Below are positions 2,249 to 10,246 of a DNA stretch of 10,556 nt, piece by piece (the stretch's first letter is position 1; every line of letters starts with the position of its first letter). The stretch comes from an uncultured cyanobacterium (GTDB taxonomy: Bacteria > Cyanobacteriota > Cyanobacteriia > Cyanobacteriales > Microcystaceae): positions 1 through 10,556 of the forward strand of contig CAWEDJ010000037.1 in assembly GCA_963807635.1 (NCBI GenBank). Direction: 5' to 3'. The notes below the pieces were generated by a model. That model saw nothing but the letters and a program-made list of their open reading frames with translations, searched no databases and had not been told where the DNA came from. A program made the translations under genes and the position numbers.

Positions 2249-2416
2249 CTAACCAAACTGTTTTTTAGCCCGTTCATAAACTTCAACGGTTATTTCCCGA
2301 ATATCGGCATCCTGAGCAAATTTTTCGATTTTCTTACGGGCGGCAGGACGAACAAAGAAGGGGATTTCCTTTAATTTTGCCTCGGCTTCCGATGTCCAAC
2401 TAACAGACTCACTCAT
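2249..2416 (-). CDS. Small PCP_red (protochlorophyllide reductase ChlB C-terminal-like) domain protein, 55 aa
   Basis: Not in the ORF track. Manual translation MSESVSWTSEAEAKLKEIPFFVRPAARKKIEKFAQDADIREITVEVYERAKKQFG* carries the WxxEAEAxLxxIPFFVR signature. Confidence 0.88.
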   Translation of the reverse strand: MSESVSWTSEAEAKLKEIPFFVRPAARKKIEKFAQDADIREITVEVYERAKKQFG

Positions 2417-2446
2417 GGGTTCTACTCACAAAAATTATTTTCAAAA

Positions 2447-3357
2447 TTAAGGATGTTGGGATAATAGTTGCACCAACTGGCGACTGCTGTTGACTAAAGA
2501 CTTGTAATAAAATATTAGCCATTGCCCCTGGTTCTGCGGGAATCAGGAGTTGGGGTATTTGGGCATTTGCTAATTGTTGTAATGCTTCTGCCCGTCGTAA
2601 TTTTATGACCCTGTTCCAATTCCAGATAATCACTACCCTGTTTTAATTCTTTGATAATCACGGGGGCCAAAGTATGAAAAGAATGGCGGGGATTGGCGAT
2701 CGCCGACTGGACTGTTTTTAGAAGTTCTTGCCAAACATCTAATTGAGGAGCAAAACTGACCAATTCAGTACAAATATCCTGTAATTTTCGCCGATTTTCG
2801 CCTGTCGCTTCCTGATTAAAGATCTTCAACATATTTCTGAGTAACGTCTTGATTTGGGCAGAGATATCAATTTCATCGTCAACAGAATCGGTAGAGGGAA
2901 TACAATGCGCCGTTTGAGTAGATTTAGCATCACCAGAAGACTCATGATGCAGTAAATATCCCAAATAATTCTGTAACTCAACAAAATTTTGATCCGCACC
3001 TTCTACAATCGATTCGGCTTCTTCCTGTTGCAGTCCAAAGGGGCCTTGGAGCTTTTCGACTAAATCCTGAAGTACATCATAGCCCCGCAAAAAAAAGGAC
3101 TCTAATTTTTGGTCAATTGTGACCCGATTTTCTTTCAGAACTTTAAACGCATCTTCCAAACGGTGAGCAACTTTTTGGATACTGGAATATCCCAACATCG
3201 CCGCGCCACCCTTAACCGAGTGAGCCGCCCGAAACATTTCATTCACCCGTTCTTGATCGTCAATCACAGCAGACAGATCTAAAATGCCGCGCTCTAGGGT
3301 TTCGAGGTGTTCTTTCGCCTCTTCGATGAAATAGCCAAGAATTTTTTGCTGATCCAA
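2447..3357 (-). CDS. Hpt (CheA P1-like) domain protein. As sequenced the ORF stops at 2515, but the true C-terminus appears frameshifted and to end at 2447
   Basis: YFIEEAKEHL...FRAAHSVKGGAAMLG...AHRLED Hpt motif. Likely TTG start at 3357 behind GGAGA. A protein-like tail continues in other frames: AEALQQLANAQIPQLLIPAEPGAMANILLQVFSQQQ, then QLVQLLSQHP*. Confidence 0.8.
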
Positions 3358-3492
3358 GGTCTTTTCTCCCAAATGGAACCCAAGTGTTCACTAAAATTTT
3401 CTAAATATCCAGAGATTATAGCTTTAGGATGCCCTGTTTTTTCTGAAAAAACATCACTATGTGATTAAATTTTTCAAAATGATTGGGATTAT

Positions 3493-3647
3493 TCAATCCG
3501 ATTCCCGACGAAATAACCCAATCATCAGGGAAACGACACCGACCTGGAGCGCAAAATTCGCCAGCCCAGTCATTGATCCCCTTCCTGCTAGAAGTTGGGT
3601 AAAGAAAAATATCGCACCAATAAATCCCGATGCTCCTAATCCCAGAT
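3493..3647 (-). pseudogene. DUF3493-family membrane protein, 3' fragment (IS-interrupted)
   Basis: Reads LGLGASGFIGAIFFFTQLLAGRGSMTGLANFALQVGVVSLMIGLFRRESD*. Joins in frame to 5174-5279 once the IS and one TSD copy are removed. Confidence 0.85.
3639..3647. repeat. Target-site duplication, left copy (ATCCCAGAT)
   Basis: Identical 9-mer at 5174-5182, directly outside the other IR. Confidence 0.9.
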
Positions 3648-3664
3648 CAGCAATTCCAAATTCA
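3648..3664. repeat. IS terminal inverted repeat (downstream of transposase)
   Basis: CAGCAATTCCAAATTCA is the exact reverse complement of 5157-5173. Confidence 0.95.
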
Positions 3665-3740
3665 GAATGTAGCTAAAGACAAAAAAAACTCAAGCTTTTT
3701 ACTGGCAAGGGTTTTACCTTGAAGATTTCCAAGTAAGAAA

Positions 3741-5069
3741 TTAAGAAGAATTGGAAGCAGCAGGAGAAAGGGGGTCATCAAGCATAAAATCTAAAAGATG
3801 ATGCCAGCTTTCAAAGAGTAGATATTTGGTTAAAGAAAGAAAGTCTTGGAAGAATCCCTTACGAGTACAGCGTTGGACGCGAATCCTCTGGTAACGTTCA
3901 TCAACCAAACCCAAAACCGTGTGGAAGAGAAAAGCCAGTAGATTGAGAGTGAGCAAAACGGAGGCAAGGTGTTGTTTTCCATGCCCAAAATTATGTTCTA
4001 AATGATAGCCCCGATTTTTGAGAATATTGTGATTCTCATTCTCCGTGCGCCAACGAGTCCGTCCAGCACGACAGACATCAAGAACGACTTGAGGGGTGAG
4101 AAAATGGTTGGTAATCCAACTATTGTGATGGAGGAGTTGAGCATCGGATTCGCGGTAGACTTTTAGTTCACACCAGTTAACCAACAAAGCAGGCTGTTGC
4201 TCTCGCAGGGGGATTTGATTGAGATAACGACATTGCCAAATCTCAAAATACTTCCCATTCCAGCGTCGGTGTTGAGTAGTTTTGAGTTCCCCGTTGGCTT
4301 CTAAATAGGCTAACCACTCATAAAGTGTGGGATGAGAAGTCGGCAAACAGACGAAGATAAAGTTGAAGTCGTGGTCTAGACTATGCTGACAAGTCGGCTG
4401 ACGACTGAACAAGTCATCCCCTAGTAGCGTTATCTTCTGCCATGCAAACAAACTGGCATGATTACTTATCCAGCGTTTTGCCGCATTTTGCTCGCAATCC
4501 TGTTTTTCCGACCCGTCTTGAGGAGTGATAAATTCAGGAGCTAAGGAGAAAACTGATTCATGGTCTGGGGAAACAATCACTGGTAATAATGCTTGATGAA
4601 AGTAGGTGACTTTTCCCTGTTTTGACGTTTTGGTTGAACAGCATGGACAATTGACTTTCCCTGAACTGTGATAATTTGTTCCATCCATCGCCACTAATAG
4701 ATTTCCCCCCAATATCTCATAAGATTTTAGGAATCCCATGTTTCTCAATGCTTGGTAAATCAACCCAAACAATGGGAATAGACTGCTCGCTGTTATCCCA
4801 TCCACAATATTACGAATCTGCTCTACTGTCGGTATTTTGTTTAGTCCAAACAAACTTTGAGCATTATCTCGCCCACAACGACTGTTGAGTTGACGTTGGT
4901 ACTCTAAAAATGACTCATTTTGCGTAAAAAAGGCGGCAAATGCACCCAATATCGCCTCTCTTAGACTATATTTCGTTGCGTTACTCGCTGAGCGCGGGTC
5001 ATCTATTTTTGCGATAACCTCGTTTAAACACTCCATGATTCCATCAAAACTTAGGTCGGTTACTTTCAT
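3741..5069 (-). CDS. DDE transposase, 442 aa
   Basis: N-terminal DPR...KYSL, candidate catalytic residues in AMDGT, LGDDLFS and RWRTENENHNILK, plus LEHNFGHG. Lies between the IRs. Confidence 0.93.
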   Translation of the reverse strand: MKVTDLSFDGIMECLNEVIAKIDDPRSASNATKYSLREAILGAFAAFFTQNESFLEYQRQLNSRCGRDNAQSLFGLNKIPTVEQIRNIVDGITASSLFPLFGLIYQALRNMGFLKSYEILGGNLLVAMDGTNYHSSGKVNCPCCSTKTSKQGKVTYFHQALLPVIVSPDHESVFSLAPEFITPQDGSEKQDCEQNAAKRWISNHASLFAWQKITLLGDDLFSRQPTCQHSLDHDFNFIFVCLPTSHPTLYEWLAYLEANGELKTTQHRRWNGKYFEIWQCRYLNQIPLREQQPALLVNWCELKVYRESDAQLLHHNSWITNHFLTPQVVLDVCRAGRTRWRTENENHNILKNRGYHLEHNFGHGKQHLASVLLTLNLLAFLFHTVLGLVDERYQRIRVQRCTRKGFFQDFLSLTKYLLFESWHHLLDFMLDDPLSPAASNSS

Positions 5070-5156
5070 TTCACACTCTACAAAACCAGCAAAAGTTTCT
5101 CTTCTTGTTCATAGACCCCTAAATGCGAATACCATTCTGTTTTTGTTTATACCATT

Positions 5157-5173
5157 TGAATTTGGAATTGCTG
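5157..5173. repeat. IS terminal inverted repeat (upstream of transposase)
   Basis: TGAATTTGGAATTGCTG is the reverse complement of 3648-3664. Confidence 0.95.
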
Positions 5174-5279
5174 ATCCCAGATAGATAAATTTGCGTAATC
5201 CTTTATAGGGGGCTTGGGCTTCTGCTTTGAGTCGGGCATATTTTTCGGGGGAAAGTTTCGGATTGGGAGAATTGGTCAT
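5174..5279 (-). pseudogene. DUF3493-family protein, 5' fragment (IS-interrupted; includes right TSD 5174-5182)
   Basis: ATG at 5279 gives MTNSPNPKLSPEKYARLKAEAQAPYKGLRKFIYLG, with the RLKAEAxAPYxGLRxFIY motif of cyanobacterial DUF3493. The reconstructed gene is 252 nt / 83 aa. Confidence 0.87.
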
Positions 5280-5489
5280 AAAAAAAGGATATTCGCAAAA
5301 TTAATGATTATGGTGAAATTTTAACAAATCAAGATGATCGTTCTTAGTTGATCTTACCTGGAGTCGCAAATAAACAGAATACCTGAGTGACTACGGGCGA
5401 TCGCGTTGAGTGGTAAAAGTTGCAAAAAAAAGGAATCAGCGAATCAAGGGATTCAGACCAATTCCTGGGAGTTGTTGATTTTTTCAGTC

Positions 5490-5633
5490 TTAAGCCAATT
5501 GGGGCATTGCAAAAACTAAAATACGGTTCAATAACCAAGGGGCAAAGCGTTGACACCAAACAGCGACATGACTCTGCCATCCGACTAAGATCTCGTTGCG
5601 ATCGCGTTGGAGACCGTGAATAAAGGTTTTCGC
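5490..5633 (-). repeat. Orphan duplicate of the last 47 codons plus stop of the SDR gene (direct repeat of 7216-7359)
   Basis: Manual ungapped alignment gives 130/144 identical nt. It translates AKTFIHGLQRDRNEILVGWQSHVAVWCQRFAPWLLNRILVFAMPQLA*, with only 2 amino-acid differences from the SDR tail. Confidence 0.95.
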
Positions 5634-5634
5634 A

Positions 5635-5706
5635 AAAAATACTTTTCCCTCGGATTGTCCTTTTAGCCCTGAACAAGTTTTAGATGCTGACTATTTTCCT
5701 GAATAA
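5635..5706 (+). pseudogene. 3' remnant of a DUF29-family gene
   Basis: Reads KNTFPSDCPFSPEQVLDADYFPE*, matching the TFPxxCPFxxEQxLDxDYxP C-terminus typical of DUF29. Truncated right at the SDR-duplicate junction. Confidence 0.75.
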
Positions 5707-5733
5707 AATGGACATTATTCAAATTAATTAAGC

Positions 5734-5768
5734 AAAAAAATCTCCTAAATCTTGAATCATTTAGGAGA
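5734..5768 (-). terminator. Intrinsic terminator of the PEP-CTERM gene (possibly bidirectional)
   Basis: Perfect 10-bp stem TCTCCTAAAT/ATTTAGGAGA (5741-5750 / 5759-5768) with an 8-nt loop and a U7 tail on the minus strand (A-run 5734-5740). It lies 23 nt after the stop codon. Confidence 0.8.
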
Positions 5769-5791
5769 ACGTTTTACCTTAAAAAAAGCAA

Positions 5792-6514
5792 TTAAGCGTC
5801 TTTTTTGTCTTTTTGCCCTTGAGATAATTTGCGTTTTAAAGTTGAGCCGAATCCAAGAGCTATTACTGAGCCAAGAATAGTTAAAGGTTCAGGAACAGGA
5901 ACAGAGGTAGTATCATAGGTTCCTTGAATTCCCTCAACTCGTAGACCCGTTGGGTTCGCGACAGTCGCGCCATTATTAACAACAAAGCTTAAAGTATTTG
6001 AACCAATTTGAAATCCAGATCCGATTGTGAAATTGGATAAAGAAGAAAAGCTGGCAAACGTGGTAGTCTGTCCCGTAGAAATCCCGTTAATCAGAATGTC
6101 CAATCCATTATTGTCAGTTGACCACAGTCCATTAATAGAGACGGTTGCTAGATTAGCGAGATTGGGTAGAGTAAAAGTTGTTTCATACGTGTAACTACCT
6201 ACTGGGCCAATCGCACTAGTGGTATTCAATCCAATCCACCGAGAAGTTGTGCTATTTGCTACCCAAGGTGGAATGGGGTAACCTGGAGGTGTTGTAACAG
6301 CTTGGAGTCCGCCAGGTGCAGGTTGGCTTGTTAATGCGTAGTGGGGGTCTATAACGCTATTACCTAGAACAGCCCCAGAATCGTTAACACCCGTATTATA
6401 AAGATTGCTAATACTAAACGCTTGAGTAGGAGCAACGTTGAGCAACGACAACGCTGAAAAAATGCTCATAACAAGAGTTTTAGAAGCTACAGATGGAGAG
6501 TTTTTAATTTTCAT
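5792..6514 (-). CDS. PEP-CTERM sorting-domain surface protein (cyanoexosortase-type substrate)
   Basis: Signal peptide (TQA|F), an S/T/N/G-rich beta-type body (DPHY, WI, TDN, NPTGLRV) and a C-terminal VPEPLTILGSVIALGFG + LKRK tail. AGGA RBS. Confidence 0.92.
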   Translation of the reverse strand: MKIKNSPSVASKTLVMSIFSALSLLNVAPTQAFSISNLYNTGVNDSGAVLGNSVIDPHYALTSQPAPGGLQAVTTPPGYPIPPWVANSTTSRWIGLNTTSAIGPVGSYTYETTFTLPNLANLATVSINGLWSTDNNGLDILINGISTGQTTTFASFSSLSNFTIGSGFQIGSNTLSFVVNNGATVANPTGLRVEGIQGTYDTTSVPVPEPLTILGSVIALGFGSTLKRKLSQGQKDKKDA

Positions 6515-6816
6515 TTTAAAATTCCTAATTAAGGTGGGCTTGTTAAAGATATAAAAGAGATTGAAACGCTTATTTCGCCGTTGTTTTCAAACTTAATGGG
6601 AAAAGTGAAAACACAAACAACCGCAACAAACTATGTAAATGTTTATACTTAAGTAGGTGGCGATGCCATTCAATATAGCAGTGTTTTTGGAGTCAATCGT
6701 ATTGAAAACACTGAACTTTATTTTTCTTTATAATCTAGAAAAATAGACCCCTAGAGATCTCATTTTCATGTGAATACTGCAATTTCCTTTTTTCTGAAAA
6801 TATCAGGTTATTTGAT

Positions 6817-7044
6817 CTATTTTTGCGCTCGCCCCCCCCCCTGTCCGAAAAGTGGCATTGCTGATTTCAGATATGAATCTTCTTTTATGGAATTTTTAAA
6901 ATCTAGACTCAAACTAACTTTTGGATATGTGTAAAGTTGGCATTCATAGCTTGATTCAGCAACGCCCGAAAAGTTATTGATCTCCTGAATTTCGTTGTGC
7001 TGGAGGACTTTGAGTTTAGGAATCTTCAAATTTAGTACCGACAT
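6817..7044 (-). CDS. Hypothetical 75-aa protein
   Basis: ORF only, with AGGGGA directly abutting the ATG. No recognisable motif. Its 3' end runs through a G10 tract. Confidence 0.3.
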   Translation of the reverse strand: MSVLNLKIPKLKVLQHNEIQEINNFSGVAESSYECQLYTYPKVSLSLDFKNSIKEDSYLKSAMPLFGQGGGRAQK

Positions 7045-7215
7045 TCCCCTGATTGACTCTACAGATAGAGTAATTCATTTGTACTATACCGTTGCAAGTA
7101 TTCGGAACCAATGCCTTACACTACTTATAGGGTGTACAAAGATTCTATAAAACTACGAGTAGTACCCGCGGCAGGGGAGTTAGTCGGCAGAGGGTGAGTT
7201 TTGGAAAGAAATAAC

Positions 7216-7995
7216 CTAAGCCAATTGGGGCATGGCAAAAACCAAAATACGGTTCAATAACCAAGGGGCAAAACGTTGACACCAGATGGCGACATGACTC
7301 TGCCAACCGACGAGGATTTCTGTGCGATCGCGTTGGAGACCGTGAATAAAGGTTTTAGCAACCCGTTGGGGAGTCATGGCTCTGACCCAGCGAAACTTTT
7401 GGAATTCCCGAATCATGTCAGTATCGGTCAACGTGGGGAGTAAGGTGACAACCCGAATATTATGGGGAGCCAATTCTCCCCGTAGGGCATCACTAAACCC
7501 TAAAATGGCGAATTTTGTAGCCGAATAGGTGGACATGGTGGGAGCCGCGACTTTCCCCATCAAGCTAGACACATTGACAATCGTGCCTTCTCCTTGGGAA
7601 ACCATCCGCCGAGCCACACAGCGCGTCATGGTATAAAGTCCGATCAGGTTTAGGGAAATTTCCTGATAGACATCGGGGAGTCGCGCTTGCAAGAAAGGCC
7701 GTTGATGGGCAACTCCTGCACAATTAACTAATAGATGAATCGGGCCGTAATCTCGCCAGGTTTTGGCGATCGCGGTATTGACTTCAATCGCTTGGGTGAG
7801 ATCCAGAGGGAGAATGACAACCTCAATGTCTGCATTGCGATAGGTGATTTCCTGGGACAACTCCTCTAAATGCGATCGAGTCCGCGCCACGATGATTAAA
7901 CGTTCCAAACCTGCTTGGGCCAACTCTAGGGCGATCGCTCGACCAATTCCCCGTGAAGCTCCCGTTACTAATGCTGTTTTTCCTTGTAAATTCAT
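7216..7995 (-). CDS. Short-chain dehydrogenase/reductase (SDR)
   Basis: TGASRGIG cofactor motif, NCAG, NVSS and YSATK catalytic motif. AAGGAGG RBS. Confidence 0.95.
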   Translation of the reverse strand: MNLQGKTALVTGASRGIGRAIALELAQAGLERLIIVARTRSHLEELSQEITYRNADIEVVILPLDLTQAIEVNTAIAKTWRDYGPIHLLVNCAGVAHQRPFLQARLPDVYQEISLNLIGLYTMTRCVARRMVSQGEGTIVNVSSLMGKVAAPTMSTYSATKFAILGFSDALRGELAPHNIRVVTLLPTLTDTDMIREFQKFRWVRAMTPQRVAKTFIHGLQRDRTEILVGWQSHVAIWCQRFAPWLLNRILVFAMPQLA

Positions 7996-9349: not shown

Positions 9350-10246
9350 TTATTGATGACTAATAACTGCGCTAGTTCCATCCCATGAAAGAACTACTTT
9401 AGCAGATTTTTGTTGCATTTTAGGTGACATAAGTTCCCAATAAATAATGTAGTTTCCTTTACTAAGACTTTGGATTACTAAGGGCTGATCAAATAACTTA
9501 AAAGATACCCCTTGAAAAATTGGTATGTGCGATGGAGATCCCCAATTCATATGTAAGTACATAAATGACGATTGTTGCCCATTAACATTGAGCATTTGCT
9601 CTTGAATTTGCGTATTAGATGGTACGTTAGATAACGAAAGATTTGAATCAATAAATATATTTATTACTACATATTCTGCGGGAGTTGGCGAGTCATTTAT
9701 AATATTAGGTATAAGCTGTATAAAGTCATTATCAACTGTTATATTGAATTTTAATTTTAAGTTTGGAGAGTCATTACGTCGCGATACATCTCTAATCTCG
9801 TATCCTTCCATCGCAATGGACTGAAAATTATACCGTTTATAAAACTTCTTATCAATCGCTTGATGTGGCGCACGAAGACTTTGAGGGATATATACAACAT
9901 ATGCAACTTTATCTATAGATATTTCTATCGGATTAATTATAATCCCATCAATTCTTTGTTGAATAGAAGAATTTATTACTTGTTCTAACCACTCTTTAGA
10001 TGTAACTGAAGGATCAAAACCCTCATCAATTGCATCAGGAAGATGACCATTTTCAATTATGCCATAAACAATAATGCCCCCAGCCGAATTGGCAAAGGCT
10101 GAAACATCTTTACTAATTTCTTTCTTTTTTGGTTCTGTATTTGCAAGTGAATCACATCGTTTATAGTCAAGTCCAATATTCTCCTGAACACGATTGTGAA
10201 TTAAGCTATCTAGATCACTTTTATCCCATTCCCAAGGTTGTTTCAT
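9350..10246 (-). CDS. AlbA_2 (Schlafen N-terminal-like) domain protein with an unknown C-terminal domain
   Basis: Motifs ENIGLDYK, KDVSAFANSAGGIIVYGI and PHQ...FYKR. AT-rich with no HIP1 site. Confidence 0.85.
   Translation of the reverse strand: MKQPWEWDKSDLDSLIHNRVQENIGLDYKRCDSLANTEPKKKEISKDVSAFANSAGGIIVYGIIENGHLPDAIDEGFDPSVTSKEWLEQVINSSIQQRIDGIIINPIEISIDKVAYVVYIPQSLRAPHQAIDKKFYKRYNFQSIAMEGYEIRDVSRRNDSPNLKLKFNITVDNDFIQLIPNIINDSPTPAEYVVINIFIDSNLSLSNVPSNTQIQEQMLNVNGQQSSFMYLHMNWGSPSHIPIFQGVSFKLFDQPLVIQSLSKGNYIIYWELMSPKMQQKSAKVVLSWDGTSAVISHQ

Follow-up and report, generated by a model that had tools for sequence, protein, structure and literature searches.

Prophages, integrative and conjugative elements (ICEs) and islands that restore their attachment (att) site in a protein-coding gene duplicate the 3' end of the target and keep the gene whole. 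Homology-facilitated illegitimate recombination (HFIR), described in Acinetobacter, Streptococcus pneumoniae and Pseudomonas stutzeri (PMC4437187, PMC6382021), combines a homologous anchor with a microhomology joint (PMC4437187, PMC6382021, PMC13344027), while hotspots of horizontal gene transfer (HGT) free of mobile genetic elements (MGEs) have been ascribed to double homologous crossover at flanking core genes (PMC5635113). Among small variable segments, 10-18% have flanking repeats, mostly under 30 bp (PMC2884548). The highly iterated palindrome HIP1, still without an agreed function after three decades (PMC13756078, PMC5861425), has been linked to smtB excision, PCC 7002 plasmid recombination, SDR5 insertion and higher transformation (PMC13756078, PMC4390886, PMC5861425, PMC9239245, PMC3025956, 10.1101/2024.09.10.611283). 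We describe a 10,556-nt contig of an uncultured cyanobacterium of the Microcystaceae (the window) in which the 3' end of a short-chain dehydrogenase/reductase (SDR) gene is present in two diverged copies bracketing a PEP-CTERM gene, and a genome-wide class of similar repeat pairs whose ends are enriched at HIP1.

The window spans the complete contig C37 of the source genome, G000 (4.03 Mb, 41% GC, one HIP1 per 850 bp), which was compared with five relatives of the same genus (G001-G005). Positions are those of the window unless otherwise labelled, and the features on which the argument turns are as follows.

7216..7995, minus strand: SDR-family oxidoreductase gene, 259 aa, intact (PF00106, E 1e-51), present in 6/6 genus genomes
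7216..7361, minus strand: working SDR tail, T/I allele by sequence comparison
7324..7331, unstranded: HIP1 in the working tail
5490..5635, minus strand: orphan SDR tail, N/V allele, 146 bp, without a start codon
5598..5605, unstranded: HIP1 in the orphan tail
5631..5637, unstranded: putative illegitimate joint linking the DUF29 stump to the orphan SDR tail; the two sides have at most a few bases in common, probably microhomology
5635..5706, plus strand: DUF29 3' stump, 23 codons and stop, truncated at 5635 and fused directly to the orphan tail
5792..6514, minus strand: PEP-CTERM protein gene, 240 aa (TIGR04155, 50.7 bits against a cut-off of 21.6)
5171..5489, minus strand: ancestral downstream flank of SDR with the start of a DUF3493 gene, contiguous with SDR in G003; the stretch duplicated in G001 and G004 corresponds to 5425-5473

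The duplicated SDR tail and its locus in relatives

The final 144 nt of SDR (7216-7359) recur ungapped at 5490-5633, at an offset of 1726 and with 14 mismatches, as the original prediction had described, and the match in fact continues two bases further to 5635/7361 (E 6e-52 in a search of the whole of G000). The copies are separated by two amino-acid changes (T/N, I/V), eight synonymous codons and different stops (TAG/TAA); two or fewer amino-acid changes arose in 0/100,000 simulated sets of 14 random substitutions. The proposal that these are alleles and not a decaying duplicate stands, because 12 of the 14 orphan-specific bases recur in intact SDR genes of the seven relatives compared. Derivation of the orphan from a separate SDR paralogue does not hold, since G000 contains no third copy of the tail, and the only other SDR-like DNA hit there, 55 nt, matches the 5' end of the gene. 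The target gene is restored by the duplicated 3' end, and SDR remains intact at its full length.

Two alleles could also result if the whole SDR region was first duplicated, or integrated additively, and a deletion then fused DUF29 to the second SDR, or if a local duplicate was later patched by short gene conversion. Nine of the 14 differences fall in SDR nt 674-711 (38 bp), immediately past HIP1 in the working copy, a clustering that such a patch would leave; 774G is common to both tail copies and absent from the seven intact relatives, and there is precedent for deletions bounded by HIP1 (smtB, as cited in PMC13756078). However, of the five differences that lie elsewhere, four also occur as natural alleles, no second full SDR occurs in the five genus relatives, and a two-step history would be required at dozens of loci, all of which make this origin improbable.

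All five relatives carry the SDR gene, and across the six genomes the accessory content behind it consists of PEP-CTERM (3/6 genomes), DUF29, a TumE pair, DUF3782, toxin-antitoxin arrays, or nothing. G003 is an empty site of the kind that had been predicted, in which SDR continues directly into the 5171-5489 flank (91-93% identical to G003/G004). In G001, 138-bp duplicates bracket DUF29, and the beginning of a PEP-CTERM-type gene comes next; 182-bp duplicates starting at the HIP1 of SDR bracket another PEP-CTERM gene and a DUF3782-like gene in G002; and 52-bp duplicates bracket the TumE pair in G004, with an 860-letter insert flanked by G004-type short duplicates present in sequencing runs X11 and X12. 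The toxin-antitoxin arrays are found in G005 (L035 4762-7420), where three pairs lie behind SDR, the units separated by HIP1 sites and the middle pair enclosed by a 155-bp duplicate, while a 172-nt SDR tail lies on a different contig. This tail (L036 8004-8175) precedes a TPR gene, which in the more distant L067 directly follows SDR, and the contig is probably the old neighbourhood left behind by rearrangement.

The duplicated lengths (146 bp in G000, 138 in G001, 182 in G002, 52 in G004) and the SDR portion within them (24 nt in G001, 116 in G002, 146 in G000, 172 in G005, none in G004) reveal no fixed breakpoint, and on these alignments we interpret the SDR locus as a hotspot with variable breakpoints. 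No SDR tail duplication was found beyond the genus among seven pairs from 774 kb of SDR loci in other genera and metagenomes. The expectation of other cargo at the same site was thus right as to cargo, which differs and is accompanied by duplications in G001, G002 and G004, but not as to a shared breakpoint. This bears directly on whether a recombinase encoded elsewhere could have placed a discrete cassette at an att-like site in the 3' end of SDR. Such an event would keep the SDR gene intact, no recombinase was found among the ORFs (open reading frames) scanned from the insert, in agreement with the original prediction, and six tyrosine-recombinase matches lie elsewhere in G000, on C28 and C93. 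Breakpoints that differ in every genome at the SDR locus nevertheless largely refute it, and it is also opposed by a joint that cuts DUF29 and, genome-wide, by a set of unrelated target genes without a common site except HIP1 in some; we regard it as very unlikely. The suggested likeness to att-restoring elements is not supported, because duplicated lengths differ, the joint cuts DUF29, and the cargo is not confined to surface proteins.

Diverged repeat pairs and HIP1 across the genome

Self-comparison of G000 for low-copy direct repeats (40-400 bp, 78-98.5% identical, 0.3-6 kb apart) identified 55 further diverged pairs at 43 loci, with medians of 82 bp, 88% identity and 1.07 kb spacing. Pairs with both copies in long ORFs were dropped, a filter to which the SDR pair itself was lost via a spurious ORF. 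Seven pairs are ungapped gene tails, with 37 synonymous against 23 non-synonymous codon changes, and the target genes are unrelated (gatA, tsaD, MarC, an ABC ATPase, GGDEF). The recurrence that had been anticipated is therefore present, although with a different cargo: the named cargo or flanking ORFs scanned were mostly toxin-antitoxin, Uma2, DUF29 or DUF-family genes, with a transposase at one locus. G000 contigs C43, C45, C98 and C105 hold arrays in which a diverged repeat occurs three times, each copy separated from the next by a small gene pair, as repeated stacking would give. Some of the 55 pairs may be paralogue ends instead of insertions. In G004 (1.38 of 4.6 Mb scanned) 27 pairs were found, at least two of them common to G000. 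The SDR window is an ordinary member of this class, and not its best HIP1 case.

The ends of the diverged pairs in G000 are enriched at HIP1. In-register HIP1 is shared by 21 of the 55 pairs and lies within 6 bp of an end in 15 of these, against 4.9 expected. When overlaps were merged and the SDR pair added, this non-redundant set had HIP1 within 6 bp of an end in 12/19 pairs and exactly at the end in 6/19, compared with 19-33% and 2-7%, respectively, for simulated duplications in which HIP1 was protected and the edges were frayed, run through an identical BLAST (P 2e-5 to 0.007 over the simulated nulls for the 6-bp count; worst-case P 0.002 for the exact end). Repeat boundaries are sharp, with 1-8/20 matches outside and 17-30/30 inside. 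In G004, HIP1 lies at the end in 7 of 9 HIP1-bearing pairs against 2.5 expected, and at G000-G004 indel breakpoints a shared HIP1 occurs in the first 10 bp at 11/181, as opposed to 1.95 per 10-bp bin farther in; control motifs gave no comparable peak at these breakpoints, except GATC itself. Eight of 17 tail joints picked by hand are within 6 bp of a HIP1 hexamer (8% by chance), and the G002 joint at the SDR gene falls at HIP1. Several orphans start at GATC within HIP1 while the cargo side is without the remainder of the site, which hints at a cut rather than pairing. Two C5 methyltransferases were recorded. Starts exactly at HIP1 were seen in 1/2 pairs in G024 (200 kb) and 1/1 in G014 (200 kb), numbers too small to conclude from. 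A GCGATC in the G001 DUF29 gene, one base out of register with the SDR HIP1, was noticed post hoc and not counted.

Routes to the insertion and its polarity

We consider that the class is best explained, with a probability of roughly 55%, by one homologous crossover combined with one illegitimate, HIP1-biased joint, an HFIR-like process that without an integrase would stack small genes at hotspots. DNA of a related strain, probably entering by natural transformation (G000 has intact dprA and comEC genes), would undergo homologous pairing and crossover at one flank of the hotspot, presumably through RecA, and the other flank would be joined illegitimately, by a short match or none, with HIP1 as possible microhomology or cut point. 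Where the stray joint falls inside or just behind a core gene, the gene would stay whole and the cargo of both lineages would be summed rather than swapped. In the window, DUF29 is truncated at 5635, where it abuts the orphan tail with few shared bases at most, and the position of this joint inside a gene suggests the trace of an illegitimate event, not a cassette boundary. The stump is identical to G001 DUF29 at 20/23 aa, DNA likeness to the G001 locus extends to 5769 at 87%, and a DUF29-like contig from run X2 aligns with the window starting at 5635. No closer donor DUF29 allele was found, with one exact pattern match among genome contigs.

Two polarities would yield an identical structure at the SDR locus. 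In polarity A the donor would supply the tail, PEP-CTERM and part of DUF29, displacing the native tail, whereas in polarity B an empty-site donor would be anchored in the DUF3493 flank and its tip, the orphan, joined into a native DUF29 gene; we hold the two to be near even. Mismatches of the working SDR to G004 number 11/300, 11/334 and 2/38 up to nt 672, then 10/48 right past HIP1, where the orphan differs at 3/48. A G004-like orphan, together with a working gene that switches after HIP1, fits the polarity of the original prediction, with an incoming working 3' end. Over the 14 differences, however, G004 agrees not only with the orphan, at eight, but also with the resident at three (nt 723, 753, 762), and with neither at three; moreover, the T residue is the state in 5/7 relatives, and G004 may itself have acquired the N/V block.

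Other loci give mixed polarity by allele phase. At gatA, G004 agrees with the resident at 22/29 sites, the orphan being foreign throughout, and the Uma2 cargo is 96.6% identical to G004, a foreign orphan with native-like cargo that fits one-sided integration. The clpB orphan is foreign at 7/7 sites, and carB has mixed allele phase (clpB and carB are names from sequence reading, with no family scan). At tsaD, G004 equals the resident at three sites and then the orphan at three, across HIP1 within the repeat. The G005 orphan row was left out of the allele comparison owing to indel misalignment, and the MarC locus is without a usable orthologue. We also observed that a separate G001 contig (L172) has an orphan carB tail beside DUF29-like cargo common to G000, with the joint 26 bp farther upstream, and that tsaD of G000 (L147, C93 47336-48378) is divided into two ORFs in the assembly, perhaps by a frameshift or an assembly error.

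In the main rival, tail and cargo, excised or circularised by an illegitimate and often HIP1-located join, would enter another strain's gene as a small circle by one crossover in the shared tail, often at HIP1. Insertion-duplication of this type would explain why the working SDR turns from G004-like to T/I-like right past HIP1 with no upstream donor tract, and why tsaD is left-native then right-native over HIP1. Several further pairs run from A to B, although these A-to-B patterns are in part an effect of alignment ends. HIP1-bounded smtB excision and HIP1 plasmid recombination have been reported (as cited in PMC13756078, PMC4390886). The gatA and clpB orphans, foreign along their full length, and the native-like gatA cargo are at odds with a circle, for which duplicates of 24-50 bp would also be short as the site of a single crossover. 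We judge this route rather unlikely.

The remaining possibility, an assembly chimera of two strains in the binned genome, rests on the state of the data: G000 comprises 107 contigs with 3% contamination, the window is one whole contig, and the best public run contains 11% of the stretch's words (such small shares are no evidence of habitat). Like architecture in G001, G002, G004 and runs X11 and X12, and pairs common to G000 and G004, make this highly improbable, and the DUF29/SDR joint appears to share too few bases for a k-mer misjoin.

Returning to the HFIR-like process, one crossover and one illegitimate joint would together account for the paired alleles, the varying lengths of the duplicates, the cut genes, either polarity and the stacked arrays. 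Several points weigh against it. HFIR usually deletes recipient DNA. The joint in the SDR window lies 30 bp from HIP1, outside the 6-bp criterion; 34 of the 55 pairs are without shared HIP1, ~94% of G000-G004 breakpoints lie away from it, and G015 (400 kb) has four pairs, none with HIP1. The tsaD phase switch across HIP1 is a circle signature. Upstream of the duplicate, SDR shows no donor tract and is G004-like to nt 672, although a same-species donor would leave none, and G004, the reference for phase, is a 94% relative and itself a mosaic. Finally, none of the reads in eight public runs aligned crosses 5635 or the PEP-CTERM body.

A broader and more tentative view, possible but to our minds doubtful, is that HIP1 serves cyanobacteria genome-wide as the working joint of a gene-stacking system that needs no integrase, with homology anchoring the other side. 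Incoming DNA would be cut or paired at HIP1, toxin-antitoxin, Uma2, DUF29 and PEP-CTERM units would be added behind unbroken core genes, and each event would be recorded by an allelic orphan tail. If true, HIP1 would gain a role in natural gene gain and the spread of recombinase-less small genes would be explained.

Remaining features of the window and comparison with described systems

Two further features lie between the copies.

5741..5768, minus strand: terminator-like hairpin separating the ends of the PEP-CTERM and DUF29 genes, which converge here; predicted by consensus scan only
6854..6966, unstranded: 113-bp repeat resembling a miniature inverted-repeat transposable element (MITE), with terminal inverted repeats and flanking 8-bp direct repeats (6846-6853, 6967-6974)

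The MITE-like repeat occurs genus-wide, with seven more near-full copies in G000 and numerous copies across G001-G005; neither it nor the DUF29 stump had been noted in the original prediction. The presence of the PEP-CTERM gene, which had been, is borne out by the TIGR04155 match. The closest other protein is 59% identical, and the gene body has no match in G001-G005, where the PEP-CTERM end and terminator alone are shared. The absence of HIP1 between the copies, also pointed out earlier, is real but uninformative as a sign of foreign DNA: 17% of random 1580-bp G000 windows are likewise without HIP1, and both copies contain it. A GC content of 38% versus 41% is similarly uninformative, and a search of Rfam gave 0 matches.

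Beyond the insert, an insertion sequence (IS) at 3645-5176 (442-aa transposase, weak PF13808, 27-bp inverted ends) interrupts the DUF3493 gene, whose 5' half runs from 5279 and 3' half lies at about 3493-3645, and which is intact in G003 and G004; another copy of the start of this transposase is found on C45. A FAD-dependent monooxygenase gene (HpxO-like, 252-1412) is fragmented, its G004 counterpart being an intact 387-aa ORF, and an Hpt-domain gene (2409-3372) is apparently frameshifted close to its 3' end by comparison with G004. A low-GC Schlafen/AlbA_2 gene (9350-10246), with xth on one side and a UPF0150 gene on the other, is missing at this position in G002 and L064/L065, marking a second variable slot.

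We found no literature report of allelic tail duplications, or of HIP1-enriched natural insertion ends, in cyanobacterial chromosomes, in a search that most subscription papers and supplements lay outside. The component processes are already known, and the genomic footprint at HIP1 appears to be the new part; the value of the finding lies mainly in the genome-wide class and its HIP1 bias. While laboratory work ties HIP1 to transformation and not to natural junctions, the paired alleles place it at natural insertion ends. They are in addition datable scars, and the class suggests how small accessory genes of cyanobacteria that lack a recombinase could accumulate at hotspots.

With the att-restoring elements this class shares a duplicated target 3' end, a whole gene and a displaced tail downstream, yet it has neither integrase nor fixed att core, its targets are many and unrelated, and its cargo is truncated. 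Small strain-variable segments between direct repeats are also found in the repeat-flanked class (PMC2884548), while the G000 repeats are 40-365 bp long and diverged as alleles. MGE-free hotspots (PMC5635113) resemble the SDR locus in being integrase-free, with variable accessory genes and no mobility genes beside a mosaic core gene, in genomes with competence genes. In that model, however, double crossover replaces cargo and leaves no duplicate, whereas here cargo is added and each event would be marked by an orphan tail; a clean replacement by double crossover does not describe the window, because neither the orphan tail nor the truncated DUF29 could arise without an illegitimate joint. HIP1-associated recombination, as described in the papers cited at the outset, likewise has HIP1 at joints, in line with the G000 orphans that begin at its GATC, but concerns single loci, plasmids and laboratory assays, unlike natural chromosomal insertion ends across a genome, and the SDR-window joint itself is not at HIP1. 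HFIR (PMC4437187, PMC6382021, PMC13344027), finally, offers one homologous anchor, one short-match joint, a gene cut at the joint and no integrase; the window shares the last three, while its anchor and RecA dependence are presumed. What sets the SDR-type class apart is a natural genomic footprint in a cyanobacterium, with a net two-allele duplication of gene tails and HIP1-biased joints.

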